64,000 nt of DNA. Origin: a virus (taxonomy: Duplodnaviria > Caudoviricetes). Under the pieces are notes generated by a model. The model saw nothing but the letters and a program-made list of their open reading frames with translations. It did no database searches and was not told the DNA's origin. This document shows positions 6,378 to 63,741 of this stretch, one piece after another; position 1 is the first letter of the stretch; each line of letters opens with the position of its first letter. The stretch lies in IMG/VR virus record IMGVR_UViG_3300029928_000001, positions 1 to 64,000 of that record. One strand, written 5' to 3'. Position numbers and translations under genes: made by a program.

Positions 6378-6745
6378 TGTAAAAAATGTTTTAAGCAGGA
6401 AGAACCATGCTGACACATTTATAACACAATATCAATACCAATACTTTGGAGAGCTTACCACTCTCCATACGGGCATCGTAAAGGAATACCTCCACGTGGT
6501 GTGCCTGGATAGTATTCGTCGAAAACATCATTGGCGAAGCTAACTGAAGTTCCAAGTCTTAGAAAATGTGAGTTGATGTTTGTAAACATTTTCGCTGTCA
6601 TTGCCAGACGCACCTGGCTTGCGGGACGGTCATTGTCGAAACCGCAAATACAACAATACCTTTTGGTTTGATTAATTTGATTTATGAAAAACAAGAAATT
6701 CCGGCAATAATGAAGTAGGGAGCCGTAGAAAATGACTGAAAGATG
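6378..6745 (+). ncRNA. Putative structured ncRNA region containing an HDV-like ribozyme
   Basis: Promoter-driven, no credible ORF, GC-richer, multiple hairpins (GAAAATGT/ACATTTTC, GCCAG/CTGGC, TTGCGG/CCGCAA). Confidence 0.5.
6471..6553 (+). ncRNA. HDV-like self-cleaving ribozyme with P4
   Basis: P1 GGGCAT/GTGCCT, P2 GGAAT/GTTCC, P3 ACC/GGT, L3 TCCACGT, P1.1 GG, P4 hairpin 6510-6542, J4/2 ACTGAA. Confidence 0.62.
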
Positions 6746-7585: not shown

Positions 7586-7651
7586 GAGATACTAATAGCG
7601 ATTATTTGCTTAATAGCGTCGATTTTGGGAATTGATTTAAATAGTATCTCG
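7586..7651 (+). ncRNA. Divergent copy of stem-ACAGCAA RNA module
   Basis: GAGATACTA/TAGTATCTC stem, ATAGCGA in place of ACAGCAA, 3' G. Confidence 0.45.
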
Positions 7652-7657
7652 TTTTAT

Positions 7658-7731
7658 ATGGGAGTAGTGTAGTGGAAACATAAGTGGTTTGGGACCATTT
7701 GTTGGGAGTTCGATTCTCTCCTCCTGTACCA
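7658..7731 (+). tRNA. tRNA-Pro(TGG)
   Basis: AGTGG-TTTGGGA-CCATT anticodon arm, GTTCGA T-loop, CCA. Confidence 0.85.
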
Positions 7732-7765
7732 ACACCTTTGTTGTGAGCGAAGCGAACAGCAAAAA

Positions 7766-7825
7766 AAGACATTTACAGCAATCTTTTTCTTAATAAGGCG
7801 AAAATAAAAAGAAAATAATGTCTTG
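7766..7825 (+). ncRNA. Stem-ACAGCAA RNA module copy 1
   Basis: AAGACATT-TACAGCAA...AATGTCTT-G. Confidence 0.65.
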
Positions 7826-7831
7826 TTTTAT

Positions 7832-7921
7832 CGAAGAGTAAGCCTAATGGTAAGGCAGCGGTTTGCTAAACCGTCAGTAGTCGGCAACGGCGTGGAGGTT
7901 CAAGTCCTCTCTCTTCGGCCA
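7832..7921 (+). tRNA. tRNA-Ser(GCT)
   Basis: GCGGT-TTGCTAA-ACCGT, long variable arm, G73, CCA. Confidence 0.9.
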
Positions 7922-7961
7922 CACAGAACTGAATATATGAGGTGAGCATAAGCGAACCTCA

Positions 7962-8080
7962 TAGGCACAAACAGCAATTTTAACAGATCCTAACTGTTAA
8001 CAGGAGTTCGAATCTCCTTTTGCGCGTCCGGCGCAAATAGTCAAGCGGATAAGACCACAGTATATATTCTTAGTGCCTAG
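7962..8080 (+). ncRNA. Stem-ACAGCAA module copy 2 carrying a circularly permuted tRNA-Glu-like domain (Y-RNA-like)
   Basis: TAGGCAC/GTGCCTA-G stem; inside: ACTGT-TAAC-T arm-TTTGCGC-gtccg-GCGCAAA-D arm-ACAGT (7993-8061). Confidence 0.78.
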
Positions 8081-8090
8081 TAACTTTTAA

Positions 8091-8178
8091 GCGGCGGTGT
8101 TGGAATCGGGTAGACAATTCGGTCTTAAAAACCGATGAGCGCCAGCTCGTGCGGGTTCGAATCCCGCTCGCCGCACCA
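8091..8178 (+). tRNA. tRNA-Leu(TAA)
   Basis: TCGGT-CTTAAAA-ACCGA, long variable arm, A73, CCA. Confidence 0.92.
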
Positions 8179-8185
8179 CAGATAT

Positions 8186-8261
8186 GCTAACATGGCGCAA
8201 TTGGCAGCGCAGCGCTCTTGTAAAGCGCAGGTTGAGAGTTCGATTCTCTCTGTTAGCTCCA
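8186..8261 (+). tRNA. tRNA-Thr(TGT)
   Basis: CGCT-CTTGTAA-AGCG, T73, CCA. Confidence 0.92.
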
Positions 8262-8264
8262 TTA

Positions 8265-8319
8265 AAGACTCGTTCAGCAATTTTAGGCACAATCTTTTAA
8301 ATTGTATACCAGAGTCTAG
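8265..8319 (+). ncRNA. Stem-CAGCAA module copy 3 with Lys(TTT)-like anticodon stem-loop cargo
   Basis: AGACTC/GAGTCT-AG stem; ACAAT-CTTTTAA-ATTGT at 8289-8305. Confidence 0.65.
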
Positions 8320-8407
8320 TTTATTTACCGAACTTGCCAAGCTTCTTCTTAGCTCAAATCGGCAAGACTTTTATTCTTAGTGAGTTAATAATTAACTCAC
8401 TTAATAT

Positions 8408-8493
8408 GGAGAGTACCCGAATGGTTAGGAACAAGATTTGAAATCTTGGGTGGCGTAACAGCTTACAGGGTTCGATTCCCTGACTCTCTTCCA
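8408..8493 (+). tRNA. tRNA-Ser(TGA)
   Basis: CAAGA-TTTGAAA-TCTTG, variable arm, CCA; discriminator T atypical. Confidence 0.82.
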
Positions 8494-8496
8494 TAT

Positions 8497-8570
8497 GCAG
8501 AATTAGTATAACAGTAGTATCTCAGTCTTCCAAGCTGAGGGCACGAGGTCAGCACTCGTATTCTGCTCCA
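8497..8570 (+). tRNA. tRNA-Gly(TCC), atypical T-loop
   Basis: TCAGT-CTTCCAA-GCTGA, GCAGAAT/ATTCTGC, T73, CCA. Confidence 0.85.
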
Positions 8571-8745
8571 AGCAGTCGATTGATCTTACCACTAGGACAT
8601 CGACAGTTGTTGGACGAAGGTAAGCGTCACGAACAACCGTTCCTGGAACTCGAGATGAACAGGTTAGCTTTATATTAAGTTGAGGGCTTAGTTCCATACG
8701 AAAATCAATACTAATATAAAGTAGTCCCAGTACGAAATCTGGGTA
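8571..8745 (+). ncRNA. Unidentified structured RNA between tRNA-Gly and tRNA-Ile
   Basis: Hairpins GTCGAT/ATCGAC, GTTGTT/AACAAC, GGAACT/AGTTCC, CCCAG/CTGGG; loop-loop complement CTTACC/GGTAAG. Confidence 0.45.
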
Positions 8746-8750
8746 TTTAT

Positions 8751-8826
8751 GCGCCTTGTCCTCGACGGTTTTGAGGGCGCGTCTTATAAGCGTGTACACA
8801 TAGTTCGACTCTATGAGGGCGCACCA
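8751..8826 (+). tRNA. tRNA-Ile(TAT)
   Basis: CGCGT-CTTATAA-GCGTG, A73, CCA. Confidence 0.87.
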
Positions 8827-8921
8827 TTGAAAAATTAAAAAAATTATGATATAATAAATCATAATTAAAAATTAAAGTTCCGCTTTTGAGCGGAGCGAGA
8901 AAGCGAAAGGAAATGAAGTAT

Positions 8922-9161
8922 ATGAAAAAATTAAATAGTTTAGAAGCATTAAGAAATGAAGCTGGTTTAAAACCAGTAGAAGCAAGAGCTGAAAAAGATG
9001 TTATTTGCCGAAAGTGCGGTTCTGTGATGCGTAAAACCGGCGATAATGTTTATGTTTGTGATGGTGCCGCAAAAGACAAGGACGGCAACGTTATTAAAAA
9101 TAAAGATGGTTCTGATAAAAGATGCGGATACTTTTATATCCGTCATAAGAAGACCGCATAA
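8922..9161 (+). CDS. Small basic zinc-ribbon protein
   Basis: CRKC...C...C; RBS AAAGGA; promoter 8827-8855. Confidence 0.7.
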   Translation: MKKLNSLEALRNEAGLKPVEARAEKDVICRKCGSVMRKTGDNVYVCDGAAKDKDGNVIKNKDGSDKRCGYFYIRHKKTA

Positions 9162-9175
9162 GGTCTTCGGTGTAA

Positions 9176-9464
9176 GGGGGCGTAATGGTTTCGACGGGGC
9201 GGAGAACAACACAAAATCGCAGGTGTAATTCACCTTACGAATTAATTTTAAATATAAACGCAAAAAATAATTATAGACCTGTCTTAATGGCAGCGTAATT
9301 TCTCATCTTTCTTAGTTTCTATTGGTAAACTAAGTGGTGGTTGATGATAACCTTTACATTTTATAGTTCGTATTGGTTGGCTATAACCTAAATAGCCTAT
9401 TGCGTAAGTAATTTTTGTGATTAAGTATTCGTTGCGGACGTGGGTTCGATGCCCACCGCCTTCA
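9176..9464 (+). ncRNA. ssrA: tmRNA, tag (A)AKNNYRPVLMAA
   Basis: 5' GGGGGCGTAATGGTTTCGAC, 3' GGACGTGGGTTCGATGCCCACCGCCTTCA, G3-U70, ATAAAC-GCA resume at 9260, TAA 9296; no encoded CCA. Confidence 0.93.
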
Positions 9465-9526
9465 GGTAGCAATTTTTCAAAAACCTCCACGTGGTTGCTA
9501 CTGGGTCACGCTAATATTTGAAAAAT
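9465..9526 (+). ncRNA. Minimal HDV-like (theta) ribozyme at tmRNA 3' end
   Basis: P1 GGTAGCA/TGCTACT (G1-U), P2 TTTTTCAAA/TTTGAAAAA, P3 ACC/GGT, L3 TCCACGT, P1.1 GG, J4/2 GCTAA; G1 directly follows discriminator A9464. Confidence 0.85.
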
Positions 9527-9546
9527 TTAAAAAAATATGTTATAAT
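9518..9546 (+). promoter_or_regulatory. Promoter whose predicted start coincides with RNA module copy 4
   Basis: TTGAAA-17-TATAAT with TG; -35 overlaps ribozyme P2 strand. Confidence 0.75.
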
Positions 9547-9552
9547 AAATTA

Positions 9553-9700
9553 TAGACTTTAACAGCAAAATAACTTTAATTTATTTATAAGTAAGTTATA
9601 ATATTAAAACCTTGATGTCGGTGGTTCGAGCCCACTTCGGATAATATTTTTATTCGGTAGCTCAGTTGGAAGAGCGCAAGGCCAAAGGAATGAAGTCTAG
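9553..9700 (+). ncRNA. Stem-ACAGCAA module copy 4 carrying a circularly permuted tRNA-Phe-like domain (Y-RNA-like)
   Basis: TAGACTTT/GAAGTCTA-G stem; inside: CCTTG-ATGTC-T arm-TCGGATA-atatttt-TATTCGG-D arm-CAAGG (9610-9681). Confidence 0.8.
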
Positions 9701-9753
9701 TTTAATACCAAATCAGATGAAATGAGCTTAGGGTGAGCGCAAGCGAACCCTAA

Positions 9754-9898
9754 AAGACCTATACAGCAAATATTTCATATAGATGAAATTGGGAAAATTT
9801 TACAAGCCAGTATGTAAAAGTTTTAAGCGATACTAATTATGATGAGTTGATAGAGATAACGAATAATTAGTGCTAAAGTTCTCTTTATTTAGGTCTTG
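9754..9898 (+). ncRNA. Stem-ACAGCAA module copy 5 (multi-hairpin cargo)
   Basis: AAGACCTA-TACAGCAA...TAGGTCTT-G. Confidence 0.68.
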
Positions 9899-9906
9899 TT
9901 TAATAT

Positions 9907-9977
9907 TGGGGCGTCATTTAACGGTAAGATCTGACTCTCTAAAAGTCATGACCTGGGTTCGACTCCCAGCGCCCTCG
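9907..9977 (+). tRNA. Amber suppressor tRNA (anticodon CTA), Gln-like
   Basis: TGACT-CTCTAAA-AGTCA, anticodon 9939-9941; T1,G2,G3,G73 as in tRNA-Gln; no full CCA encoded. Confidence 0.92.
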
Positions 9978-9978
9978 C

Positions 9979-10030
9979 GGAACTAAGTCTAAAACCTTCT
10001 CGTGGTAGTTCTGTTTTTACTAATTTAGAC
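9979..10030 (+). ncRNA. Theta (minimal HDV-like) ribozyme at suppressor tRNA 3' end
   Basis: P1 GGAACT/AGTTCT, P2 GTCTAAA/TTTAGAC, P3 ACC/GGT, L3 TTCTCGT, J4/2 ACTAA. Confidence 0.85.
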
Positions 10031-10079
10031 AATTAGAACAGATAGTTCATCTGTTTTTCATTTCCTTTTTGTTTATTGA

Positions 10080-10147
10080 AAGACGATTACAGCAAAGTTA
10101 AAAGTAAGTTTATAATAATTCTACAAGAGAAAACTTTTATCGTCTTG
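10080..10147 (+). ncRNA. Stem-ACAGCAA module copy 6
   Basis: AAGACGAT-TACAGCAA...ATCGTCTT-G. Confidence 0.68.
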
Positions 10148-10157
10148 TTATTGATGA

Positions 10158-10234
10158 TGCAGAGTAGAGAAGTGGCTGTCTCATCAGGTTCATATCCTGA
10201 GTTATGCGTGGTTCGAATCCCGCCTCTGCAACCA
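10158..10234 (+). tRNA. tRNA-Met(CAT), initiator-like
   Basis: TCAGG-TTCATAT-CCTGA, A73, CCA. Confidence 0.85.
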
Positions 10235-10239
10235 ACATT

Positions 10240-10288
10240 AAGATACATACAGCAATTATTATATTTAATATTACGTTTTTGTATCTTG
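10240..10288 (+). ncRNA. Stem-ACAGCAA module copy 7 (minimal)
   Basis: AAGATACA-TACAGCAA...TGTATCTT-G. Confidence 0.65.
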
Positions 10289-10336
10289 TATTTTATATTT
10301 TTTAATTAAAAAATATTGGTGCGGTCGAAAAACCGA

Positions 10337-10426
10337 AAGACGCATAAACAGCAATTTTTAATTTTCTGGTCGAAAAAATATTCTACAAAAATGTTTTTGT
10401 GGTTCGATTCCACATTATGCGTCTTG
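10337..10426 (+). ncRNA. Stem-ACAGCAA module copy 8 with T-arm-like hairpin
   Basis: AAGACGCATAA/TTATGCGTCTT-G; TGTGG-TTCGATT-CCACA inside. Confidence 0.68.
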
Positions 10427-10535: not shown

Positions 10536-11336
10536 ATGAATTTAAGATTTACCGAACATATAAAAGAAATACTAACCATTGAGCCTGCCGAAACAGTTGC
10601 CTATGTGGCGCTACAAGGCTCCCAAAATTATAACCTTCAATATGAAGGATCTGATGTAGACACAAAGGCAATTGTAACACCTACTCTTATGTCTATCGTA
10701 AAAAACCAAAAGATGAAGAGTTACACTCATGTGCGCGCCAATAATGAACATATTGATGTCAAGTCTGTAGCGCCTATGTTTAACTGTTTCCGCAAACAAA
10801 ACATTAATTTCGTTGAAATCCTTTTTACTGATTACTTTTGGATTAATGATTTATATAAAAATGAAATTCAAACTTTGCGCGATTCTGCTGAAGAGATTGC
10901 ACGAATGGATACTTATCAAGCCGTTAAGTGCATAAAAGGCATGGCATATGAAAAATATCATGCTTTACAACATCCTTATCCTGCAAAAGCACAAATTATT
11001 GCTGAGCATGGATATGATGGCAAACAACTTTCTCATATGGTAAGAATCGAAGAATTACTTAAAAAATATCTTGATGGAGTACCATATAAAAATTGCCTTA
11101 AAAGTGAACAACGAGAAAGGTTAATTATGTTAAAACAGCATGTACTTTCATTGGAAGAAGCTAAAGCAGTTGCTGTACGTACACTAACCCATATTGAAAC
11201 TTTAGCTGATAAATTTTGTACTTTCAATAGTAATAGAGAGGCTTATAAGAATCAAAAAACATTTGAATTATTAGATGAAATTCAATATGATATTATTCGT
11301 AAAGCTCTCGTGTATGAATTACAACAGGGGAGATAA
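10536..11336 (+). CDS. Pol-beta superfamily nucleotidyltransferase (RlaP-like)
   Basis: GSQNYNL...SDVD motif, YDGKQLSHMVR. Confidence 0.8.
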   Translation: MNLRFTEHIKEILTIEPAETVAYVALQGSQNYNLQYEGSDVDTKAIVTPTLMSIVKNQKMKSYTHVRANNEHIDVKSVAPMFNCFRKQNINFVEILFTDYFWINDLYKNEIQTLRDSAEEIARMDTYQAVKCIKGMAYEKYHALQHPYPAKAQIIAEHGYDGKQLSHMVRIEELLKKYLDGVPYKNCLKSEQRERLIMLKQHVLSLEEAKAVAVRTLTHIETLADKFCTFNSNREAYKNQKTFELLDEIQYDIIRKALVYELQQGR

Positions 11337-11408: not shown

Positions 11409-11615
11409 ATGAAATATCGGCGAAATTTTGAAACTCATGAATTTTATTGCCCAGAGTGTCATAGAAAAATATATGATATTCCTAGACGGATAGGGTATTT
11501 TAGAGAAAAAGGACATAGAAAAAATCTTTATTGTCCATGGTGTAAAAAAGTAACTAAATGCAAAGAAATCGGAACTATTGAAGAAGAGTATAAAAGAAGA
11601 GGGTGTTTAAAATGA
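11409..11615 (+). CDS. Small zinc-ribbon protein, bL33-like
   Basis: FYCPEC...GHRKNLYCPWCKKVTKCKE; paralog at 16235. Confidence 0.6.
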   Translation: MKYRRNFETHEFYCPECHRKIYDIPRRIGYFREKGHRKNLYCPWCKKVTKCKEIGTIEEEYKRRGCLK

Positions 11616-12352
11616 AGTGGAACAGAGCGTTCGTTAAAGGTGACTATCACGGTCAATTTAGAGGGCTTAAAGATTTTTGCGATGAGAAACATACAACAAC
11701 AGATGATTTACTTATTTGCTTAGGTGATGTGGGTTTAAATTATAATTTAAATGTATATGATGAGGAAAGAAAAAGATTTCTTTCTAAGATGCCAATTACA
11801 TTTTTAATGCTTCGCGGCAATCATGAGGCTCGTCCAGAGAGTATATCGACAATGCGCAAATGTTATGATAAAAGATTTAAATGTGAAGTTTATTATGAAC
11901 AAGATTATCCAAATATTTATTATATTAATTGTGATGTATTTAATCTTAATGGATTAAGATGTTTAGCTATCTCTGGTGCTTATTCAGTTGATAAAGAATA
12001 CCGTTTAATGATGGGGTATAAATGGTTCGCAGATGAACAGCCAACAGAAGAGGAAAAGGAATATGTGCGAAAAATCGTCAAAGAGAATCCTACATTCAAT
12101 TATATATTTTCGCACACTTGCCCTATTTCGCATGAACCTACTCATTTATTCTTAAATAATATTGACCAAAGTAAAGTTGATAAAACTACTGAATTATTTT
12201 TGGAAGAAATTTATCAACAAGTGCATATAGCGGAACAGGGCGAATGGCTATGTGGCCATTATCACTCCGACGAATGGCTCGGCGGGAAAATTCATATGCT
12301 TTTCCATGATTATTATTTGTTGTTAAAAAAGGAGAAGAATAAAAATGATTAA
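11612..12352 (+). CDS. Calcineurin-like metallophosphoesterase
   Basis: GDYHG, LGD, RGNHE, SHTCP, GHYH. Confidence 0.88.
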   Translation: MKWNRAFVKGDYHGQFRGLKDFCDEKHTTTDDLLICLGDVGLNYNLNVYDEERKRFLSKMPITFLMLRGNHEARPESISTMRKCYDKRFKCEVYYEQDYPNIYYINCDVFNLNGLRCLAISGAYSVDKEYRLMMGYKWFADEQPTEEEKEYVRKIVKENPTFNYIFSHTCPISHEPTHLFLNNIDQSKVDKTTELFLEEIYQQVHIAEQGEWLCGHYHSDEWLGGKIHMLFHDYYLLLKKEKNKND

Positions 12353-12540: not shown

Positions 12541-13302
12541 ATGAATTATTTTATTGACTTTGAAGCTAATAGTCCTTCTGGTGAAATTATTAGTATTGGT
12601 TGCGTAAGTGAGAATGGAGAAGAGTTTTATAGTTTAGTAAATTGTTCCACCCCTTTAGATAATTATGTAAAGAAAATTACTCATTTAAGACAAGAACAGA
12701 TTGATAAAGCTAAATTAATTGATACAGTTTTAGTTTCTTTTTTCTCTTGGCTTATGGCAACTAATAAAAAAGATTATTTTAATTGGAACGATACAAAATT
12801 TTATCATTATGGTTCAGAAGATACAAAATTTATTAAAGCAACTTTAAAAAATATTCAAAATAGTGTTAATTATGAACAATTTTCTGCGGTAATGACTAGA
12901 TGCGCAAATTATGATAAAGAAGTTCAAAAATTCTTTTCAATTAATCAACCAATTTCTTTAATTGCGGCAGCTAATTATTTTAAAACTGAGCCAGAAGAAC
13001 AAACTCATAACGCACTAGATGATGCTAAATTATTGAAATCAATTTTTGAAAATATTGATGGAAAAGAATCTATTGGTCCAGTTGATTTTACTTTTGATCA
13101 TAAAATCATTGTAAGAAAACATAAAAAGAAAAAAGAAATTGTAAAATATAAAACAGTTGATGAAGTATTAACTTTTTGTATGGCTAATATACCAGAAGAA
13201 TATCGTCATGACGATAAAATTAAAAATAGAATGCGCAATCGCCTTAAGAAAGCCATTATTCAAAAAACAAAATATTGTGGGTTTAACTGGAGTGTAGAAT
13301 AA
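12541..13302 (+). CDS. DEDDh 3'-5' exonuclease
   Basis: IDFEA, EIISIG, HNALDDA. Confidence 0.85.
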   Translation: MNYFIDFEANSPSGEIISIGCVSENGEEFYSLVNCSTPLDNYVKKITHLRQEQIDKAKLIDTVLVSFFSWLMATNKKDYFNWNDTKFYHYGSEDTKFIKATLKNIQNSVNYEQFSAVMTRCANYDKEVQKFFSINQPISLIAAANYFKTEPEEQTHNALDDAKLLKSIFENIDGKESIGPVDFTFDHKIIVRKHKKKKEIVKYKTVDEVLTFCMANIPEEYRHDDKIKNRMRNRLKKAIIQKTKYCGFNWSVE

Positions 13303-13720: not shown

Positions 13721-13879
13721 ATGGATAATGAAAAAGCATTAGAAATATTAAAAGGTAGATATTTACTTAACCAAAAATTAATTGAAGAACCTCAAAGTGA
13801 CTTTGATAAATTTGTATTAGAAGAAAATGAGGCTTTATTATTCGCGATAGAAGCCTTAAGAAAGGAAGTGAAAAAATAA
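13721..13879 (+). CDS. Small hypothetical protein (52 aa)
   Basis: GGGAG RBS, coupled to RNA ligase start. Confidence 0.55.
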   Translation: MDNEKALEILKGRYLLNQKLIEEPQSDFDKFVLEENEALLFAIEALRKEVKK

Positions 13880-15084
13880 TGGTAGGTAAAGATGGACAAA
13901 GAATGCTTTGTTACCCAGTAGTAATTGATGATATTATTCCAATCGTTGGCTCTGATAATTGCGAGTGCGCAGTCATCGGTGGTTGGAAGGTCATGGTCAA
14001 GAAAGGGCAATTTCAAAAAGGGCAAAAAGTGGTTTATTTTGAAGTTGATTCGCTTGTGCCAGCCGATAATGAAGCTTTTACTTTTATGAGTAAATATAAG
14101 TATAAAGTTAAAACTCAGCGTTATACTTTTGGCGGAAAAGGATTATTTTTCTCTCAAGGTTTAATTCTTGCTTTTGTGGATCTAGGGCTAAAAGAAGAAG
14201 ACTATGAAATTCACACTGATTTAACTAAGAAACTTGGAGTTAAATATTACGAAGTAGAAGATAATCAAAGAAAAGCAAACTTTGACCCATATCGTTCTAT
14301 GATGGATAGACATAAAAAGTTTTTTAGAAAGCCATGGGTTAAAAAAATTATGAGATATGCCGTTGGCAGAAAGATTATGTTTACTTTGTTCGGCAAGAAG
14401 AAAGATAATAAGAAGGGTTGGCCCGTCGGTCAGTTCCCCGGCGTATCAAAGACTGACCAAGAAAGGGTTGAATGCATGCCGTTTGTGCTCAATGATAAGA
14501 CTCCTTATATCGTCTCTCAAAAGTGCGACGGGTCGTCAGGTACGTTCATCCTTGAACGAAAAAAATTTGGCAAATATGAATTTTATGTTTGTTCTAGGAA
14601 TGTGCGTATGTTGCACGAAAGACAAGAATGCTTCTATGGGGCCGATAACTATTATTGGGAAGTAGCTAAGAAGTATGATATTGAAAATAAGATGAAACAA
14701 TGGTTAAAAGAAAATCCAACGGCAAAATGGATTTGCTGGCAAGGTGAAATTTGTGCGCCGGGTATCCAAAAAAATCCGCATAAGCTTACTGAAACTCATC
14801 TCTTTTGTTTTCATTGGACTGACAGCATTAACGGTCGTTTAGATTTAATTACTGCTAAGAAAGAATGGGAAAAGAGAGGAATGGAAGTAGTACCAATTAC
14901 TGATACTAATTTTATTCTTCCAAATGACATGGAAACTTTTAAGCTTCAAGCTGATGGTTTTTATGATGCTTCAGTTTGCGAAGGTAAAACTGATTGTGCG
15001 AGAGAAGGTTTTGTATATTACAAAACTACTGATCCAACTTTTAGCTTTAAAAACGTTTCAAGAACTTATCTTTTAAAACATTAA
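13879..15084 (+). CDS. ATP-dependent RNA ligase, DRB0094-like
   Basis: N-terminal OB-like VVYFEVDS domain, KTDQER, motif I KCDGSS, QGE, REGFV, SFK. Confidence 0.88.
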   Translation: MVGKDGQRMLCYPVVIDDIIPIVGSDNCECAVIGGWKVMVKKGQFQKGQKVVYFEVDSLVPADNEAFTFMSKYKYKVKTQRYTFGGKGLFFSQGLILAFVDLGLKEEDYEIHTDLTKKLGVKYYEVEDNQRKANFDPYRSMMDRHKKFFRKPWVKKIMRYAVGRKIMFTLFGKKKDNKKGWPVGQFPGVSKTDQERVECMPFVLNDKTPYIVSQKCDGSSGTFILERKKFGKYEFYVCSRNVRMLHERQECFYGADNYYWEVAKKYDIENKMKQWLKENPTAKWICWQGEICAPGIQKNPHKLTETHLFCFHWTDSINGRLDLITAKKEWEKRGMEVVPITDTNFILPNDMETFKLQADGFYDASVCEGKTDCAREGFVYYKTTDPTFSFKNVSRTYLLKH

Positions 15085-15467: not shown

Positions 15468-15561
15468 GGGAGATAGATGAATCTCCCTTTTATTTTTTTG
15501 AAAAAATATGTTATAATATATTATAAAGAAAAATAAAAGTAAAAGATTGGAGCTGATATTT

Positions 15562-16251
15562 ATGAGTACATATTGTTTTTCAGATGTTCATGGACAATAT
15601 AATCTATGGAAACAAATTCAAAATTATCTTAAAGAAGATGATACATGTTATGTATTAGGAGATTGTATTGATCGTGGTTTAGATGGTTATCAAATTCTAA
15701 AAGAAGTATTAGAAGATAAAAAATGCATCTTTTTGCTAGGTAATCACGAAGATATGATGTTGCATTATTTCAAAACTGAAAGTCCATATGATAAACGTTT
15801 ATGGTTTTTAAATGGTGGTGAACCAACTTATAATGCTTGTAAAAATGATATAGATTTACACGATATTCTTCAAAAATTAGATTTAGCACCAAAAGAAATA
15901 ATGTATAAAAATATCCATTTAAGTCATGCGGGAATTGCTCCAGGTATCGAAGAACGAGACTTGCTTTGGGACAAAGATCATATTTATACTCGTTGGTTCA
16001 ATGAAGAAGGAATTGATTATGTAGTTCATGGACATACACCAGCAATGTATATTCAAGAAGAATTATTTAATCTTAAACTTTTTACTGGTAATGATTATGA
16101 TTATGCTTCTTATGAAGATGTAATGTGTAAATATTGTGAAGGGCATAAAATTTGTATTGATGGAAGAAGTGTATTATCTCATAAAATTGGTTTATTAGAT
16201 TTAGATACATTAGAATTAGCGGAGGTATTTAAAGATGCCGGTAGTAATTAA
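15562..16251 (+). CDS. Ser/Thr phosphatase-type metallophosphoesterase
   Basis: SDVHG, GDCIDRG, GNHE, HAG, HGHTP. Confidence 0.9.
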   Translation: MSTYCFSDVHGQYNLWKQIQNYLKEDDTCYVLGDCIDRGLDGYQILKEVLEDKKCIFLLGNHEDMMLHYFKTESPYDKRLWFLNGGEPTYNACKNDIDLHDILQKLDLAPKEIMYKNIHLSHAGIAPGIEERDLLWDKDHIYTRWFNEEGIDYVVHGHTPAMYIQEELFNLKLFTGNDYDYASYEDVMCKYCEGHKICIDGRSVLSHKIGLLDLDTLELAEVFKDAGSN

Positions 16252-16489
16252 TGAATTTTACTGCATTAATTGCGGTAATAAAGGAATAGATTTAGCTCGC
16301 AAAAAAGGGCATCAACATAAAGCAGGTCATTTAAAAAAATTATATTGTATACATTGTAGAAAAGTTTGTAATCATTATGAATGTCCAACTCCAGAAGATG
16401 TAATAAAATTTAAAGAAAAATTTAATAATGGTGATTTTATAGAATTAGCAAAAGAATCTATCAAACTATGTAAAAAGGAGGTATTTTAA
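16235..16489 (+). CDS. Small zinc-ribbon protein, bL33-like
   Basis: FYCINC...GHLKKLYCIHCRKVCNHYE. Confidence 0.65.
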   Translation: MPVVINEFYCINCGNKGIDLARKKGHQHKAGHLKKLYCIHCRKVCNHYECPTPEDVIKFKEKFNNGDFIELAKESIKLCKKEVF

Positions 16490-16956
16490 TGAAAGAATTA
16501 ATTTTAATGATGGGTATTCCTGGATCAGGAAAATCTACTTATTTAAAAGCAATAGTATCAAGTTCAATGGGAGAAATTGCTATCTCCAGAGATCAAATTA
16601 GATTTTCTATGATTGATGGAAAACAAAATTATTTTTCTAAAGAAAATGAAGTATTTAATGAATATATTAGACAAATCCAATCAGCTTTAGATAATCCAAA
16701 AATACATAGAGTTTATGCTGATGCGACTCAATTAACAGAAAAAAGTCGTTGTAAAGTTTTAGATAAATTGAAACTTGATAATATAAATATCAAAATTTAT
16801 TGGAAAAATACTCCTTTAAAACTTGCGCTTGAGCGCAATAAGAAACGGGAGGAAATTGCAGTTGTACCAGAATCGACAATTATTAGAATGTATAACTCGA
16901 TTCAAGACCCGCGCAAAGATACTAAATATAAATATAAAGAAGTGAGGTTAATTTAA
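16489..16956 (+). CDS. P-loop kinase (AAA_33 / polynucleotide kinase-like)
   Basis: GIPGSGKST, SRDQIR, DAT, RNKKR. Confidence 0.85.
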   Translation: MKELILMMGIPGSGKSTYLKAIVSSSMGEIAISRDQIRFSMIDGKQNYFSKENEVFNEYIRQIQSALDNPKIHRVYADATQLTEKSRCKVLDKLKLDNINIKIYWKNTPLKLALERNKKREEIAVVPESTIIRMYNSIQDPRKDTKYKYKEVRLI

Positions 16957-32243: not shown

Positions 32244-33752
32244 ATGAACACTCTTTTACAGGGATTAAAAGCAAATACTAACTTCGGTTATACAGAGAAT
32301 GGGGCAGTAACGCATATTACTACAATGTCAGACCTCTATGATATGTTTGCGCTGGGCGGTGCTTACAGAACTCGCTCTGATGAAGACTGTATTGTTTTGT
32401 TTAAGAAAGCGTATAAGGAGAATCCTACATATGCGCTTAAGTGTCTGTTTTATCTGCGCGACGTTCGCGGCGGACAAGGCGAGAGGCGGTTCTTCCGAGT
32501 ATGCTTAAAGTGGCTTGCCAATTATGATACAGAAGCGGCGGTTAGGAACATCTCTAATGTCCCGACGTTTGGCAGATACGATGATTTGTATTGCTTAGTT
32601 GGCACTAAGGCAGAAAAAGTAGCTTTTGATTTTATTAAAAAACAGTTAATGCTTGATATGGAATGCAAGACTCCATCTCTTTTAGCTAAGTGGTTAAAGA
32701 GTGAGAACACTTCTTCACTGGAAAGCGTTAAATTGGCTAAAATTACTCGTCAATATCTTGGTATGACTTCCAAACAGTATAGAAAGACTTTATCTGTTTT
32801 GCGTGCAAAAATTAACGTCCTTGAAAGACTTATGTCAGCAGGTAAATGGGCAGATATCGAGTTTGATAAGATTCCTTCCAAAGCAGGTCTTATTTACAAA
32901 AACGCATTCGCTAGACATGACGTAGAACGAATGAAGGTAAATCCGCAAGTTGTTTCTTATGAAGCATTTGCTAAGGATGAAAATACAACTGTCAATGCTA
33001 AAGCTCTGTATCCATATGAAGTAGTTCAAAAAGCTATTGATGCTATGGGCGGATTTAGTTATTGGGGTCGTTCAAAGGATGTAGCATTAGATGATACAAA
33101 TCGTTTAATGGTAAATAAATACTGGGCTAATTTAAAGGATTACTTCGATGGAGCTACTTTAAATGCACTTCCAGTTATTGATACTTCCGGTTCAATGTGG
33201 GGACTTCCAATCCATGTAGCTATTTCTCTTGGCTTGTATTGCGCAGAACGTAATAGAGGACCATTCGCAGACCATTATATTTCTTTCAGCTCTCGTCCGC
33301 AGTTGATTAGAACTGAAGGAGTAGATTTCTGTGATAAGGTTAAGAGAATTTATGAAACAAATTTATGTGAAAACACAAATATTGAAGCTACATTTGATTT
33401 AATCTTAAATACAGCTATTGAAAATAATTTATCTTCTGATGAATTACCAGAAAATATTATTGTCATCTCTGACATGGAATTTGACGCCGCTCGTGGATGG
33501 GAGTCTAATCCAGCAGAAACATTAATGGAAGGTATTGAAAAGAAGTGGAATAGAGCTGGGTATAAGATGCCTAAGCTTGTGTTTTGGAATTGCGCGGCGC
33601 GCAACGATAGAATTCCAATGAGAGATCAATATGGAATTACATTTGTTTCTGGTGCTTCTCCTGTAATCTATGAAATGATTATGAGTGGAAAAACGGCTCA
33701 GGATTTGATGTTTGATAAATTAGATTCAGATAGATATGCTGTAATTCAGTAA
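32244..33752 (+). CDS. DUF2828-family helical-repeat + vWA protein (TROVE/Ro60-like architecture)
   Basis: TENGA, RDVRGGQGER, AKW, MIDAS DTSGSM, TN, ISDMEFD, FWN. Confidence 0.82.
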   Translation: MNTLLQGLKANTNFGYTENGAVTHITTMSDLYDMFALGGAYRTRSDEDCIVLFKKAYKENPTYALKCLFYLRDVRGGQGERRFFRVCLKWLANYDTEAAVRNISNVPTFGRYDDLYCLVGTKAEKVAFDFIKKQLMLDMECKTPSLLAKWLKSENTSSLESVKLAKITRQYLGMTSKQYRKTLSVLRAKINVLERLMSAGKWADIEFDKIPSKAGLIYKNAFARHDVERMKVNPQVVSYEAFAKDENTTVNAKALYPYEVVQKAIDAMGGFSYWGRSKDVALDDTNRLMVNKYWANLKDYFDGATLNALPVIDTSGSMWGLPIHVAISLGLYCAERNRGPFADHYISFSSRPQLIRTEGVDFCDKVKRIYETNLCENTNIEATFDLILNTAIENNLSSDELPENIIVISDMEFDAARGWESNPAETLMEGIEKKWNRAGYKMPKLVFWNCAARNDRIPMRDQYGITFVSGASPVIYEMIMSGKTAQDLMFDKLDSDRYAVIQ

Positions 33753-46681: not shown

Positions 46682-47209
46682 TTGGCAAAACATTATGTAA
46701 AATGTTATTATTGCGGCGAAAAATTTGATGCTAATGAAGAAGAATATGTTATGATTAATTCTCGTCGTTATGCTCATAAAAAATGCGCTGAAAATAAAGA
46801 ACAATCTTTAACTCAAGAACAATTAGATAAAATCGCATTTGAAGAATATGTAATGAAAATATTTAAATTAGAATATATAGAACCTCAAATGCAAATGCAA
46901 ATTAAACGCTTTATAGAAAAGAATAATTTTACTTATTCTGGTATGCGCAAAGCATTAATTTATTTTTATGAAGTAAAAGGAAATCCAATAGAAAAAGCAG
47001 GAAAAAGTCTCGGTATTATACCTTATGTATATCAAGACGCATATCGTTATTATTTTTCTATTTGGCAAGCGCAACAGCGTAACCAAGTAAAAGAAATAAA
47101 GCAATATATTCCACAAGTAAAAGAAATTATAATCCCAATTCCGCAGTTACAACCTAAAAAAGAGCGAGAATTGTTTAAATTTTTAGATGAAGAACAGGAG
47201 AAACAATGA
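46682..47209 (+). CDS. Zn-finger replication-associated protein
   Basis: CYYC...H..C, GIIPYVY; coupled to dnaB. Confidence 0.6.
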   Translation: MAKHYVKCYYCGEKFDANEEEYVMINSRRYAHKKCAENKEQSLTQEQLDKIAFEEYVMKIFKLEYIEPQMQMQIKRFIEKNNFTYSGMRKALIYFYEVKGNPIEKAGKSLGIIPYVYQDAYRYYFSIWQAQQRNQVKEIKQYIPQVKEIIIPIPQLQPKKERELFKFLDEEQEKQ

Positions 47210-49827
47210 GTTCAAAATATGTTGATATTAGTGCTGTAATACAGGTAATTGGTAATGTATTTAATAATCCTAGCCTTTTGGAATTACAAGATAAATATAT
47301 AATTACTGACAATGATTTTTCTAATGAATTTCATAAAGTCGTTTTTGGTTCAATGTTTAAATTACATGAATTAGGAGTAACTGAATTTACTTTAGAGAAT
47401 ATTAATGACTTTTTAGCTACTCGTCCAAAATATGAAGCAGTTTATAAAAGTAATAAAGGTGATGAATGGATTTTAAAAGCTTCTGAAGCAGCAGTATCCA
47501 CAGCATTTGATTATTATTATCAAAGATTAAAAAAATTTTCTTTACTACGCGCTTTTGACAACTATGGAATAGATGTTTCTGATATATATGATGTTGATAA
47601 TATTTTAGACATAAAGAAAAAACAACTTCAAGAAGATTTATTAGATAATTCATCATTAGAACAAATAGCTAATAAAGTTGATTTAAAAATTGAAGAGATT
47701 AGAGCAACATATGTTAATGATGATTGCGGTGAAGCTAAACAGGCAGGCGAAGGAATTTTAGCCTTAATTGATAGATTTAAAGAATTTCCAGAAGCAGGAG
47801 TAGCGATGTATGGACCATTAATCAATACTGTTACTCGTGGAGCGAGATTGCGCAAGTTCTACCTCCGTTCCGCTCCAACCGGCGTAGGAAAATGTATTCC
47901 TGACTATACTATAATTCCAACTCCTATTGGAGATCGAAAAGTTAGCGATATAAAAGTTGGAGATGAATTATTTGATGGTTTTGGTAATCCGACTAAAGTA
48001 TTAGCTGTATATCCGCAAGGTGAAAAAGAAGTTTGGGAAGTTGAATTCAAAGATGGTCGTAAAGCTGAATGCTGTGAAGAGCATTTATGGAGTTATTGCA
48101 CAGTAGGTCAAAAAAAAGTTTCTAAAGAAAATCGTAAATTTTATACGAATACCCTAAAAGAAATTTCTAAAAAAGAATTATATAGAAAAAGTGATGGATA
48201 CCAAATATTAGTTCCAATGCAACAAGCTGTTCATTTTTCAAAGAAAGATTTTTCTATAGATCCTTATATTTTAGGATTAGCTTTAGGCGATGGAAGTTTT
48301 AGATATGATTCTAAGAATAAAGCTTTTATGTTTAGTTCTGCTGACGAAGAATTAGTTAATTCTTTTGAAACAATTATGGGCTGGTCTAGTAAAAAATATT
48401 CAAATCATTCATTTTATAGCTGGTATTTTGAAGATTTAAATAATTCATCGCATAAAAATGTTTGGGTTGAAGAATTTTTAAAAGATTATCCTAAATTATG
48501 GAATGTAAAATCAGAAGATAAATTTATTCCACAAGAATATTTTATGGGATCAATAGAGCAAAGATTAGACTTATTAAATGGTTTATTAGATACTGACGGT
48601 TCTATTGATAAAGAAAAAGGACGAATTAGTTTTTATACAGTTAGTAATCAACTTAAAGAAGATGTAATTAAATTAAGTTTAAGTCTAGGGTTTAAAGCAA
48701 CTTATTTGATTGATGATCATAAAGATACATTACCTGTTTTTAAAATTGAAATAACCGGTAAACCAGAAGATAAAGTTAAATTATTTAAATTATCTCGAAA
48801 AAAAGAAATAATTTTAAATTGGTTTAATAATGGAAAAAGAAAAGAAAATAATTTATTTAATCCAATTGTTAAAATTACTAAAACTAATAAAAAAACTCCT
48901 ATGACTTGTTTTTATGTAGATAATGATGAACATTTATTTTTAATGAATGACTATATCGTAACTCATAATACCAGAACAATGATTGCTGATATATGTTATA
49001 TTGCTTGCGAAAAAATTTATGATGAACAATTTGGATGGATTGGTAGTGGACCTGCGCAACCATGTTTATATATTACCACAGAGCAAGACTTAGAAGAAAT
49101 TCAAACTATGATGTTGGCATTTATTTCTAATGTTAATGAAGATCATATTATTTATAACGAATATGAAGATGGCGAAGAAGAACGTGTTCGTATGGCGGCA
49201 GAAATGATTGCCGCAGCTCCTTTATATATTGAAGAATTACCAGACTTTTCATTACAAGATGTTGAAGACAAAATTAAAAAGAATATTAGAGAACATGAAA
49301 TTAAATATTGTTTCCATGACTATATCCATACTAGTCTAAAGATTCTAGAAGAAATAACTAGACGTAGTGGAGGAGTAAGGCTAAGAGAAGATAATGTTTT
49401 ATTTATGTTATCCACAAGATTAAAAGATATTTGTAATAAATATGGCGTTTTTATTATGTCGGCTACTCAATTAAGTGGAGATTATGTCGATTCAAAAACT
49501 CCTGACCAGAATCTTTTAAGGGGGGCGAAGGCAATTGCTGATAAAATTGACTTTGGCTCAATTTTATTACCAGTTAAAGATGAGGATTTAGTATCACTTG
49601 AACCAGTGCTTGCGGCAAATGTATATGAAAAACCAAACTTAAAGTTATCTATTTATAAAAACCGTAGAGGAAAATATAAAGGAATTTATTTGTGGTGTAG
49701 AGCTAATTTAGGAACTTGTAGAGTAAAGCCTATGTTTGCTACTGGATATGATTATGGTTTAATTGAAATGGATGATATAAAAATTACTTTAAAAGAACCT
49801 TCGGCTTTTGAGGATGATGAAGAATGA
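47206..49827 (+). CDS. dnaB: DnaB-like replicative helicase with intein
   Basis: APTGVGK|T Walker A, ITTE, DYIH, ATQL, KNRRG. Confidence 0.88.
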   Translation: MSSKYVDISAVIQVIGNVFNNPSLLELQDKYIITDNDFSNEFHKVVFGSMFKLHELGVTEFTLENINDFLATRPKYEAVYKSNKGDEWILKASEAAVSTAFDYYYQRLKKFSLLRAFDNYGIDVSDIYDVDNILDIKKKQLQEDLLDNSSLEQIANKVDLKIEEIRATYVNDDCGEAKQAGEGILALIDRFKEFPEAGVAMYGPLINTVTRGARLRKFYLRSAPTGVGKCIPDYTIIPTPIGDRKVSDIKVGDELFDGFGNPTKVLAVYPQGEKEVWEVEFKDGRKAECCEEHLWSYCTVGQKKVSKENRKFYTNTLKEISKKELYRKSDGYQILVPMQQAVHFSKKDFSIDPYILGLALGDGSFRYDSKNKAFMFSSADEELVNSFETIMGWSSKKYSNHSFYSWYFEDLNNSSHKNVWVEEFLKDYPKLWNVKSEDKFIPQEYFMGSIEQRLDLLNGLLDTDGSIDKEKGRISFYTVSNQLKEDVIKLSLSLGFKATYLIDDHKDTLPVFKIEITGKPEDKVKLFKLSRKKEIILNWFNNGKRKENNLFNPIVKITKTNKKTPMTCFYVDNDEHLFLMNDYIVTHNTRTMIADICYIACEKIYDEQFGWIGSGPAQPCLYITTEQDLEEIQTMMLAFISNVNEDHIIYNEYEDGEEERVRMAAEMIAAAPLYIEELPDFSLQDVEDKIKKNIREHEIKYCFHDYIHTSLKILEEITRRSGGVRLREDNVLFMLSTRLKDICNKYGVFIMSATQLSGDYVDSKTPDQNLLRGAKAIADKIDFGSILLPVKDEDLVSLEPVLAANVYEKPNLKLSIYKNRRGKYKGIYLWCRANLGTCRVKPMFATGYDYGLIEMDDIKITLKEPSAFEDDEE
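47893..48969 (+). mobile_element. Intein with LAGLIDADG domain in DnaB Walker A
   Basis: CIPDY...THN|T; LGLALGDG, LNGLLDTDG. Confidence 0.92.
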
Positions 49828-54076: not shown

Positions 54077-54270
54077 TGATAGTTTGTGATAAATGTAGAG
54101 AAGAGAAAAAATTAACAAAATATATAATACCAAAAGAAGATTGGACAGGATGGAATGTTGAATATCGAGGTCAAATTTTAAAAAGTTTTACAGAATATAA
54201 AGTTCTTCCAACAGAAATAGAATTATGTAATGAATGCGCAACCGAGGTGGCAAGAAAAATATGGAATTAA
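54076..54270 (+). CDS. Small Zn-ribbon protein
   Basis: CDKC...CNEC, AAGGAG RBS. Confidence 0.55.
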   Translation: MIVCDKCREEKKLTKYIIPKEDWTGWNVEYRGQILKSFTEYKVLPTEIELCNECATEVARKIWN

Positions 54271-57200
54271 CTATACGTCAGCAAGAAGGATTGCGCATTG
54301 CGGTTGAGCGATACCATAATAGAGAACCTTATACCGTAATTAGCGGTTATGCGGGTGCGGGCAAGGCGCAACCAATAGAAACAATTATACCGACTCCAAA
54401 CGGAAAAAAGAAAATAGGAGAATTAAAAATAGGTGATTATGTTTTTGATCGTTTGGGTAAACCAACTAAAGTTTTAGGCATATATCCGCAAGGAAAAAGA
54501 AAAAAATATGAAATTACTTTAGCTGATGGACGAAAAACTATTTGTGCTGATGATCATTTATGGAGTTACTATACCAGTCGAGGTAATTTAAATACAAAAA
54601 CAACACAAGAAATGTTAAATAGTGGCTTAAGAAATTCTAGTGGATTTAAATATAAAATTCCAAATAATCAAGCTGTAGAATATCCTAAGCAAGAATTTAT
54701 TATTGATCCTTATATGATGGGAGTATTTTTAGGTGATGGATGTTGCAAAGAAAGATATTTAACGCTATCTTCTGAAACTGATGAAATTCCTAAAAATATT
54801 GGAGAAATAATTGGTGCAATTCCTTATAAAAGTTCTATAAATAATTATAGTTGGACATTTGAATGGATTGAACATACGGAAACAGTTAAATGGAATAATT
54901 CTAATAGAATAGAAGAGCGAAAAAAACCAAAAACAATAGATTATTTTCAACCATATGAAAAATATTTGTTATGTTATGCTCAAGAAAAAGATATACCTCC
55001 AGAGTATAAATTAGGAAGTATACAACAAAGATTAGAATTAATCCAAGGCCTCTTAGATACAGATGGCTCAATTAGTCAACATGATCAAAATCGTTTCAAT
55101 ATAAGATTTACTTCGACAAGTATTAAACTAGTTCAAAGTTTACAAGAAATTTTATATAGTTTAGGATATGCATCTACAATAACTGAAGATAATCGTAATG
55201 AAAAATATACAAATGAAATCTGCTATGGGTTAAATATTAATATTCCAAATGAAGAAAAATATAAATTATTTCGCTTAAAGAGAAAAAAAGATATAGCGGA
55301 AAAAGCCAAAGAATTTCATAAACATAAAGATTATAATAAAATTTCTATTATTGATATTCAACCTTTACAAGAAGAAGCAGAAATGGTTTGTATTTATGTA
55401 GAAAATGATGAACATTTATATTTAACTAATGATTATATAGTAACGCATAATACTACACTTGTAAAATTCATCATAGCAGCTCTTGACCTTAATCCGGAGA
55501 AAGATGTTGCTTATGTGGCATTCACAGGCAAAGCGGCCACGGTCCTCTCAAAGAAAGGTAATCCAAACGCTATGACAGCGCATAAGCTTCTTTATACTGC
55601 TCGTCAAAAATCCGATGGAACTTTTTTCTTTATTCCTAATCCTCCGGGTTCTTTAGAATATAAAGTCATAGTATTAGATGAATGTTCTATGCTCCCAAAA
55701 GGTATGTGGGATAGGCTACTCAGCCATGGAGTTTACGTGATAGCCTGCGGAGATCCGGCTTAACTAGGAGGAAATGGGTCGGATTTAAAAAAATTGGTTT
55801 AATTGCGGGGATATCCTTAGAGGTTGCTCATACCAACTTAAAATAGTGATATTTTAAGGGCGAAAAGTAATGTTGGAGATATAGGTAAAAATTGGGCGAC
55901 ATTGGACAACCCGCAGCTAAGTTTCTTTAAATATTTATGAAATTAAAAGAAAGGATAAAAATATGAATGGGAAAAAGAAAAACACAAGAGCAATTTGAAC
56001 AAGATGTATTTGAGCGCTTAGGCGAAAATTATGAATTATTGAGTCCATATCCTGGCGCTCATGGAAAAGTGTTAATGAAGCATTTTATCTGTGGAAATAC
56101 TTTTCAAAAAAATGTTCATGATATTATTAGTAAACGAAGTGGATGTCCATATTGTAATGGAGCAAAACCGGCTTTGTATAATGAAAAATGGGTGAAAGAT
56201 AATACACCTGAACCATATGAATATCGTTCAGGATATAGTAAAATGAAAGAAAAATGTATATTTTATTGCAAAAAATGCAATAGCGAATTTGAACAATCTC
56301 CTAGTAGATTAATTAATGAACATATTTATGGATGTAATTGTTGTCCAACAAAAAAATGGTCTAATGAAGAATTTTTATCACAATTAGGCGAGACTTGTTT
56401 AAATGAGTATGAAGTTTTGGAAGAATATATTACAACTGATACTCCAATTCGTTTTAAGCATAAAAAATGTGATACAACATTTTCTTTATCTCCTTATAGA
56501 TTTATTTATCGACATAATAAAAAATATTGCCCAATTTGTTATTATAAAAAATCTCAAGGAGAAGTAATAATTACTACTTTTTTAAAGAATAATAATATAG
56601 ATTATCAAAAAGAATTTATATTTTCTGACTTACCACAAAGACGTTTTGATTTCTTTTTGCCAGAAGAACAAATAGCTATTGAATTTGATGGTAAACAACA
56701 TTTTGAATATATCCCATTTTTACATAATAATAACATTGAAAATTTTTATTTAACTCAACAAAGAGATCAAGAAAAAAATGATTTTTGTTTATTAAATAAT
56801 ATTAAATTATTTAGATTTTCTTATATAGATTTAGATAATTTAGAAGAAATACTCCAACAAATATTTAAAGAAAAAAGTTCAACGACTATCGAAAAATATT
56901 TAGTAAAAAATATGAAGTAGAGTAGAGAATAAGCTAATGATTCTCGAAACAGCCAACATAGAAGATATAGTCTGTTCTTATAAGAAATTATAAGCCCTAT
57001 GGGGAAAAGAGTTGCGTCTTTTCCTAAACAATATAAACAATTACCTCCAATTAATCCCGAAGACGACAACCATGCGCTCGACAAACCGCATATTTTCCTT
57101 GATGAAATTATGCGTCAAGCGCAAGATAGTGAAATTATTAGATTATCTATGTGGGTGCGTGAAGGGCATGATATAAAAGATTTTAACTGTTCAAATAAAC

Positions 57201-62900: not shown

Positions 62901-63741
62901 GAAGTAAATAAATATCCTGGCTTATTAGATATTATTATGAGCATTAATGGACTTATTAATAAACGTTCTACTCATGCTAGCGGTGTTATTTTATATGATA
63001 ATGATCCATTTAAAACCGCTTCTTTTATGAAAACTCCTGGAGGCGACTTGGTTACTTGTTTTGATCTCCATGCGGCAGAAAATGGGGGAGATACCAAATA
63101 TGACTTCTTAGTAACTGAAGTTAGTGATAAAATTATCCAATGCTTAGAATTATTAGAAGATGAAAATGTAATTGAAAAAGATTCATTGCGTAATCTGTAT
63201 AATAAATATTTGCATCCAGAAGCAATGGATACAACTAAACCAGAAATTTGGCAACATCTTGAAGCAGGAGATATTCTTGACGTATTTCAATTTAACGAAA
63301 GTTCAGGCTTAGCTATTGCTAAAAAATGTAAACCAAAAGATGTATATGAAATGACTGCGGCAAATGCTATGATGCGTCTTATGAGCGAATCGGGCAAAGA
63401 GTCACAACAAGACAGGTACGTGCGCATTCAGAAACAAGGTATCCAAGTTTTTGATAATGAAATGAAGCAACATCATTTATCTGATAAAACGAGAGCAGCT
63501 TTACATAAACATTGTGATGCTTATTTTGGTTGCGTGCCGTTACAAGAGCAAATGATGGAAATTCTTATGGATGAAGATATCGCAGGTTTCACTTTAGGAA
63601 GAGCAAATGCGGCGCGTAAAATTGTAGCAAAAAAGAAAATGGATCAAATTCCAGATTTAAAAGCTGAGGTTTATGAACACATTCCTAATAAAGAAACGGC
63701 TGACTATGTCTGGGAGATCGCGATAGCGCCGTCATTAGGGT
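59957..63741 (+). CDS. dnaE: DNA polymerase III alpha, exon 1 (7-nt interruption at 60002-60008, intein, downstream intron)
   Basis: AGGAGG RBS, HSHTHYS PHP motif, AITDH, GPGRGSA, PDIDID, HASG, KYDFL. Confidence 0.9.
61446..62735 (+). mobile_element. Intein with LAGLIDADG domain in DnaE
   Basis: CFKKGT...TSDH...VHN|C; GIWLAEG, GWFLGDG. Confidence 0.92.

Follow-up and report, generated by a model that had tools for sequence, protein, structure and literature searches.

A phage tmRNA gene that stops at its discriminator base raises the question of how the 3′ end of the RNA is made. The stretch of DNA analysed here (the window) covers positions 1–64,000 of a virus record that is 178,419 bp long, is rated 100% complete and has a G+C content of 30%; TAG is read as sense in some gene blocks of this phage genome. 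The tmRNA has a tRNA-like domain and a tag frame, and its Rfam score of 82.4 bits compares with a gathering score of 47 for RF00023. Its acceptor stem (GGGGGCG/CGCCTTC) is paired at all seven positions and keeps the G3·U70 pair. The discriminator is A9464 and is followed by GGT instead of CCA, so that CCA is not encoded, in agreement with the original prediction. The same prediction had placed the first nucleotide of a theta ribozyme, G9465, directly 3′ of the discriminator, and the fold, the start of the covariance model match and the end of the tmRNA all converge on this junction. The evidence set out below indicates that nucleotides 9465–9526 are very probably an active theta-type ribozyme, which the phage would transcribe as a 3′ trailer to its tmRNA, and that this ribozyme most likely makes the tmRNA 3′ end. 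The coordinates of all elements are collected in Table 1. The promoter-like site upstream would drive the small open reading frame, the tmRNA and the ribozyme as a single transcript. The small open reading frame, which we list for context only, had no match in Pfam, PHROG or NCBIfam and, by alignment, has no conserved counterpart ahead of the tmRNA in the closest relative (L159).

Table 1. Features of the tmRNA/ribozyme locus and of the RNA end-processing genes downstream of it. Positions are those of the window.
Feature	Position	Strand	Basis or remarks
Promoter-like site	8827–8855	+	TTGAAA, 17-nt spacer, TG-extended TATAAT; 11/12 matches
Small Cys-rich open reading frame, 91 aa	8886–9161	+	Stops 15 nt upstream of the tmRNA
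Phage tmRNA	9176–9464	+	ARAGORN and Rfam RF00023; tag AKNNYRPVLMAA, then stop
Theta (minimal HDV-like) ribozyme, 62 nt	9465–9526	+	Predicted cut between A9464 and G9465
P1, 5′ strand GGTAGCA	9465–9471	+	Pairs with 9496–9502 (TGCTACT), 7/7, G1·U wobble
P2, 5′ strand	9472–9481	+	Pairs with 9517–9526, 10/10
P3, ACC/GGT	9483–9485 with 9493–9495	+	3/3; closes L3
L3, TCCACGT	9486–9492	+	Parse of our own descriptor
P1.1, CC/GG	C9487–C9488 with G9503–G9504	+	
P4 substitute, GTCACG, 6 nt	9505–9510	+	
J4/2, CTAATA	9511–9516	+	C9511, predicted catalytic cytosine; role by analogy with the HDV family
Next promoter-like site	9518–9546	+	TTGAAA, 17-nt spacer, TGnTATAAT; 11/12 matches
Amber suppressor tRNA, anticodon CTA	9907–9977	+	ARAGORN, Rfam; without full CCA
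Divergent HDV-like fold behind the suppressor tRNA	9978–10030	+	P1, P2, P3 and CTAA present; P1.1 pairs absent
Pol-beta-type nucleotidyltransferase	10536–11336	+	Homologues with PF10127 (RlaP)
Calcineurin-like metallophosphoesterase	11603–12352	+	Candidate healer of 2′,3′-cyclic phosphate ends
DEDD (RNase T-like) 3′–5′ exonuclease	12541–13302	+	Profile matches
DRB0094-type RNA ligase	13879–15084	+	Profile matches
Second metallophosphoesterase, calcineurin-type (lambda-phosphatase/NinI-like)	15547–16251	+	Profile matches
P-loop polynucleotide-kinase-like protein (AAA_33)	16489–16956	+	

Theta ribozymes, a minimal form of HDV-like ribozyme, were described from gut phages, where they sit at tRNA 3′ ends (Kienbeck et al, 2024, Nat Commun 15:1559, PMC10879173). 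Four of the published examples self-cleave in vitro, and a C-to-U change inactivates them (PMC10879173). The nucleotides behind the tmRNA can adopt the same nested double pseudoknot, with P1, P2, P3 and P1.1 in HDV order, a 6-nt linker in the place of P4, a J1/2 of 0 nt and a conserved core. The first position of J4/2 is C9511, which lies within CTAA as in the published theta ribozymes. The core, ACC-T-CC-ACGT-GGT … GG … CTAA, is that of the commonest published theta ribozyme (no. 1 in Supplementary Data 1, PMC10879173); relative to that ribozyme, GTCACG replaces GTAACG, and P1 and P2 have unrelated sequences that still pair. Beyond the fold and the core, the predicted ribozyme shares with published theta ribozymes a cut directly after the discriminator of a CCA-less, tRNA-shaped end and a carrier that is a TAG-recoded, Caudoviricetes-type phage with a DRB0094-type RNA ligase. 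It differs from them in its longer P2 (10 bp), the lack of J1/2, a J4/2 extended by two bases and, as the upstream RNA, a tmRNA instead of a tRNA. This partner places it outside the tRNA-associated theta subgroup, defined by a cut no more than 5 nt from the 3′ end of a tRNA found by tRNAscan-SE, although its distance of 0 nt from a tRNA-like 3′ end reproduces the geometry of that subgroup. The nested double pseudoknot, the G1·U pair at the cut, a catalytic C that opens J4/2 and the absence of an upstream sequence requirement are also shared with the HDV-like ribozyme of Faecalibacterium prausnitzii (RF02682) and the wider HDV/CPEB3 family. In contrast to these ribozymes, there is no real P4 helix, and the Rfam match to RF02682 (24.8 bits, E 0.11, model positions 1–74, starting at 9465) lies below its gathering threshold of 44 bits.

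Rfam contains no theta family, and the RNArobo descriptor of the theta authors is given as a figure only (Supplementary Fig. 6). We therefore wrote our own descriptor, modelled on the delimited sequences in their paper. Its single match on both strands of the 64-kb window was at 9465; the descriptor is loose and gave 0.1 matches per shuffled window. A covariance model (R1) was built from an alignment of 45 unique theta-core sites from IMG/VR that abut ordinary tRNAs, with P1 and P3 entered as pairs. Nucleotides 9465–9522 scored 51.4 bits on R1 (E about 3e-10), matched the full model and started at 9465. The nested-only minimum free energy fold of the 62 nt was no better than those of shuffled sequences (z = −0.49), by a measure that is blind to pseudoknots. 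The window contains a third HDV-like ribozyme at 6471–6560, which sits behind a hairpin downstream of the promoter copy at 6344; it has the core ACC-TCCACGT-GGT but a true P4 helix, and it scored 23.3 bits on R1 over the 5′ 41 positions.

The surrounding genome provides a natural control, in that ribozyme-free tRNAs with an encoded CCA occur beside a tmRNA and a suppressor that lack CCA and have an HDV-like fold behind them. In the RNA-gene island at 6.3–10.5 kb, all nine ordinary tRNAs encode CCA and none has a ribozyme behind it. Of the 11 tRNA-like genes, the tmRNA and the amber suppressor are the only ones without CCA and also the only ones with an HDV-like fold behind them. The same contrast was found in another tmRNA-carrying phage (L153), with CCA encoded by 14 tRNAs and a ribozyme behind the tmRNA.

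The original prediction went further and proposed that the tmRNA and the suppressor share one ribozyme-dependent maturation route and may be co-regulated. A shared 3′-end route is plausible in the window phage, because these two genes alone are CCA-less and flanked by HDV-like folds. On the other side, the suppressor fold scored 14.3 bits on R1 (E 0.16), compared with 51.4 bits for the tmRNA ribozyme, and, since it also lacks the P1.1 GG/CC pairs, its activity as a ribozyme is doubtful on sequence grounds. Moreover, L150, a phage that likewise pairs its tmRNA with a theta ribozyme, has an amber suppressor with its CCA encoded and no ribozyme behind it; in several other such phages no suppressor was seen in the stretch examined. 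Co-regulation is speculation: the tmRNA and the suppressor each have their own copy of one and the same promoter upstream, and this would be enough to account for co-expression.

A scan of phage tmRNA 3′ flanks with an HDV/theta descriptor, proposed at the outset as a check, bore out the junction. IMG/VR and JGI metagenome contigs were scanned with sequence patterns and the matches passed through our own descriptor, ARAGORN and Rfam, which left nine distinct pairs of a phage tmRNA and a ribozyme (the window, L159, L003, L006, L020, L150, L153, L164 and L163). Because the scans demanded a tmRNA-like GGAC and T-arm upstream, this number is no measure of frequency. Duplicates were grouped (L003 with L017, L021, L025, L147, L149, L154 and L156; L006 with L165 and L166; L020 with L151; L150 with L001; L164 with L152). 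In all nine pairs, the acceptor stem is paired at 7/7 positions, the discriminator is A, there is no CCA tail and the first nucleotide of the ribozyme is the very next base. The tags of three of the nine tmRNAs end in MAA (LMAA in the window, KMAA in L150 and RMAA in L164) and the remaining ones in LVA, FAC or EAA; host proteases may read such endings differently.

The pairing of P1 is maintained across these and related ribozymes while its sequence varies. Among 14 ribozymes compared, each of P1 positions 2–6 is occupied by four to five standard pair types. The two P1 strands of one ribozyme pair at 6.9 of 7 positions on average; when strands of different ribozymes are combined, the figure falls to 3.8 of 7, and P2 behaves likewise. 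Across the tmRNA and the ribozyme, the closest relative (L159) shares 87% identity with the window, and its P1 differs by three double changes, all of them compensatory (GGTAGCA/TGCTACT in the window and GGCGACA/TGTCGCT in L159). As judged from this pair of sequences, such changes show ongoing selection for P1 pairing. They also bear on the alternative that the element is a decayed or chance look-alike of an HDV-like ribozyme that does not cleave, with host RNase Z or exonucleases making the tmRNA 3′ end. The looseness of the descriptor and the degenerate appearance of the second HDV-like fold of the genome (at 9978) would fit a look-alike, but the compensatory changes would not, nor would the fully paired P1 and P2, the intact state of all conserved theta positions, including the P1.1 CC/GG pairs and C9511, the score on R1 as an independent model, or a start that coincides exactly with the tmRNA end. 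We consider a look-alike extremely unlikely.

BLAST against 50,697 deposited phage genomes left the window region and two other tmRNA/ribozyme pairs unmatched, and in IMG/VR no relatives were found by way of the nucleotidyltransferase encoded downstream and an exact 24-mer of the tmRNA was unmatched. A further search with the nucleotidyltransferase turned up relatives that are 75–84% identical. In bacterial genomes, a loose pattern gave at least 120 matches, essentially chance occurrences in GC-rich bacteria, with no strict theta site among the matches listed.

To see how theta ribozymes are distributed irrespective of a tmRNA, we used an unbiased sample of theta cores, which contained 116 sites in 113 of 115 loci among the matches listed. 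Within this listed set, 65 sites adjoin tRNAs (six of them suppressors), two are linked to tmRNAs by ARAGORN, with L017 added by Rfam, and ~48 lie elsewhere, about 37% being off both tRNA and tmRNA. The tmRNA is thus a minor but recurrent partner of theta ribozymes. At most tRNA-linked sites the predicted cut falls within 0–1 nt of the tRNA end. Of 42 unique sites classed as other among the matches listed, 15 come after T-arm/acceptor ends that were not recognised, and many of the remaining ones after stable hairpins. Three ribozymes (L197:7199, L261:4104 and L247:6762) share their loci with ROOL RNAs (Rfam scores of 298–303 bits), which begin 100–270 nt 3′ of the ribozyme in L197 and L261 and lie ~1.8 kb upstream of it in L247 (4362–4973). 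Each of the three is preceded by a tRNA-like 3′ end, with T arm, acceptor strand and A, that ARAGORN and Rfam called neither tRNA nor tmRNA. Four others (L196:1717, L216:7184, L205:1262 and L257:6609) come directly after long, perfectly closed hairpins instead of tRNA-like ends, which suggests that hairpin-abutting theta ribozymes serve other small RNAs as well, by forming their 3′ ends.

Such sites lend some weight to a different role, in which the ribozyme is active but is selected to split the transcript, keeping the tmRNA unit off the next promoter and RNA gene in the manner of a terminator, while the exact tmRNA end is a by-product. With so many of the listed theta sites off tRNA and tmRNA and behind hairpins, making an end for any RNA would be a general use. 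At the locus itself, no terminator-like site was found to separate the tmRNA from the unit that follows, whose promoter overlaps the ribozyme, and cleavage would leave the downstream RNA with a 5′-OH and prevent read-through precursors. Separation, however, needs no precision, whereas the predicted cut is on the discriminator in each of the nine tmRNA cases and is nearly as exact in most tRNA cases, and it would not account for a tmRNA that specifically lacks CCA among neighbouring tRNAs that encode it. We therefore regard splitting as the selected function as quite improbable and retain formation of the tmRNA 3′ end as the preferred reading.

The 3′ strand of P2 had also been predicted to double as the −35 element of the next promoter. 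The overlap is real: it covers 9 nt (9518–9526) and includes the whole −35 hexamer (9518–9523). Together with the site at 8827–8855, this promoter-like site belongs to a set of four near-identical copies within the island (6.3–9.6 kb) and of six genome-wide, and it is identical to the copy at 6344 over about 35 nt. The arrangement, however, is not kept in the closest relative, where P2 retains TTGAAA but the nearest TATAAT is ~26 nt away and another RNA module starts directly. Functional coupling, by which ribozyme sequence and promoter use would constrain or regulate each other, could draw on the overlap and on the shared promoter copy. The altered spacing in L159 argues against it, as does P2 itself, which differs freely among the other tmRNA-linked ribozymes; dense packing of an AT-rich RNA-gene island is a sufficient explanation. 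Coupling is thus very unlikely, and we read the overlap as tight packing rather than demonstrated coupling.

The same island holds repeated RNA modules (7586–10426; near 7766, 7962, 8265, 9553, 9754, 10080, 10240 and 10337) with a covarying terminal stem, AGACnnn/nnnGTCT, and an invariant ACAGCAA. Two of the modules include tRNA-like domains that are rotated and have a closed acceptor end (about 7985–8060 and 9610–9690). We considered a permuted or split tRNA system for these domains and the ACAGCAA modules and dropped it, because a weak Rfam match to YrlA (9612–9679, 22.9 bits) and a DUF2828/DUF7788 (TROVE-like) protein encoded at 32244–33752 fit Y-RNA-like RNAs better. Between two tRNAs, a match to the abiF RNA of Rfam (8333–8367) came near the threshold, with 32.3 bits against 37. 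Elsewhere in the window, LAGLIDADG/Hint (intein-type) insertions were seen in a DnaB-like helicase (47206–49827), an SF1 helicase-like protein (54234–55763) and DNA polymerase III alpha (59973–63743).

Precursors of CCA-less tRNAs and tmRNAs can be processed by RNase Z or exonucleases, with the same outcome of a discriminator end that awaits CCA. Compared with RNase Z, a ribozyme works in cis and without protein, and it leaves a 2′,3′-cyclic phosphate rather than a 3′-OH. From the junction, the fold and the gene content of the phage, we infer the following route. Host RNase P would form the 5′ end of the tmRNA. The ribozyme would fold into its nested double pseudoknot, and C9511 and Mg2+ would catalyse cleavage 5′ of G9465, freeing a tmRNA that ends at A9464 with a 2′,3′-cyclic phosphate and leaving the ribozyme, together with any read-through RNA, with a 5′-OH. 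In this way the ribozyme would take over, in cis, the task of RNase Z on a tRNA-like end that lacks CCA. Since the end would be a cyclic phosphate and not a 3′-OH, an extra healing step would be needed before CCA addition and charging: the cyclic phosphate would be opened and removed, likely by the phage metallophosphoesterases encoded 2–7 kb downstream. The host CCA-adding enzyme would then most likely supply the CCA, as no class-II CCA-adding enzyme was found in the 178-kb phage genome. The tmRNA would finally be charged with alanine and work with host SmpB; no SmpB (PF01668) was found in the 178-kb phage genome or in three other tmRNA/theta phage records, and the partner of the phage tmRNA is presumed to be that of the host.

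The candidate healers belong to a cluster of RNA end-healing and end-sealing genes that lies 1–7 kb downstream, directly after the RNA-gene island. Its ligase is of the DRB0094 family, which is reported to be ~140-fold enriched in theta-bearing phages (PMC10879173). The first gene of the cluster was considered as a CCA enzyme and rejected: the predicted structure of the nucleotidyltransferase (pLDDT 95) appears closest in fold to kanamycin nucleotidyltransferase (KNTase) and HalB, and the fold search did not return CCA-adding enzymes. Of three other tmRNA/theta phage records, one has both a ligase and a CCA enzyme and two have neither. One of these two is 98% complete, so phage healing enzymes are not generally required, and the link between the repair cassette and the ribozyme is one of proximity only. 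A more specific possibility is that the cyclic phosphate serves as a lock that keeps the tmRNA and the amber suppressor inert until phage end-healing enzymes appear, so that ribosome rescue and the switch in the TAG code would be licensed jointly by a protein timer. Candidates for releasing such a lock are encoded just downstream, namely the metallophosphoesterases, the kinase and, possibly, the RlaP-type nucleotidyltransferase. We consider this arrangement unlikely.

The original prediction held that theta ribozymes are known from tRNAs and not from tmRNA, and the literature bears this out. The theta paper (PMC10879173) contains no mention of tmRNA, ssrA or transfer-messenger RNA, and the published literature that we searched held nothing that ties theta or HDV-like self-cleaving ribozymes to tmRNA. 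The window ribozyme and six tmRNA-linked ones were not found in the accessible part of the supplements of the theta paper. The tmRNA/theta junction therefore appears to be unpublished. The tRNAscan-based classification in that paper would put tmRNA-linked sites under 'not tRNA-associated' (PMC10879173), and tmRNA partners may explain some of the published orphan theta ribozymes of this class. What the window adds is the contrast between CCA and ribozyme within one genome, the adjacent healing cluster and a relative with compensatory changes in P1. The only role proposed for theta ribozymes so far, at the 3′ ends of phage tRNAs, is thereby extended to a ribosome-rescue RNA, which suggests that making ends in cis is a general task of theta ribozymes on phage RNAs that are tRNA-shaped or end in a hairpin.
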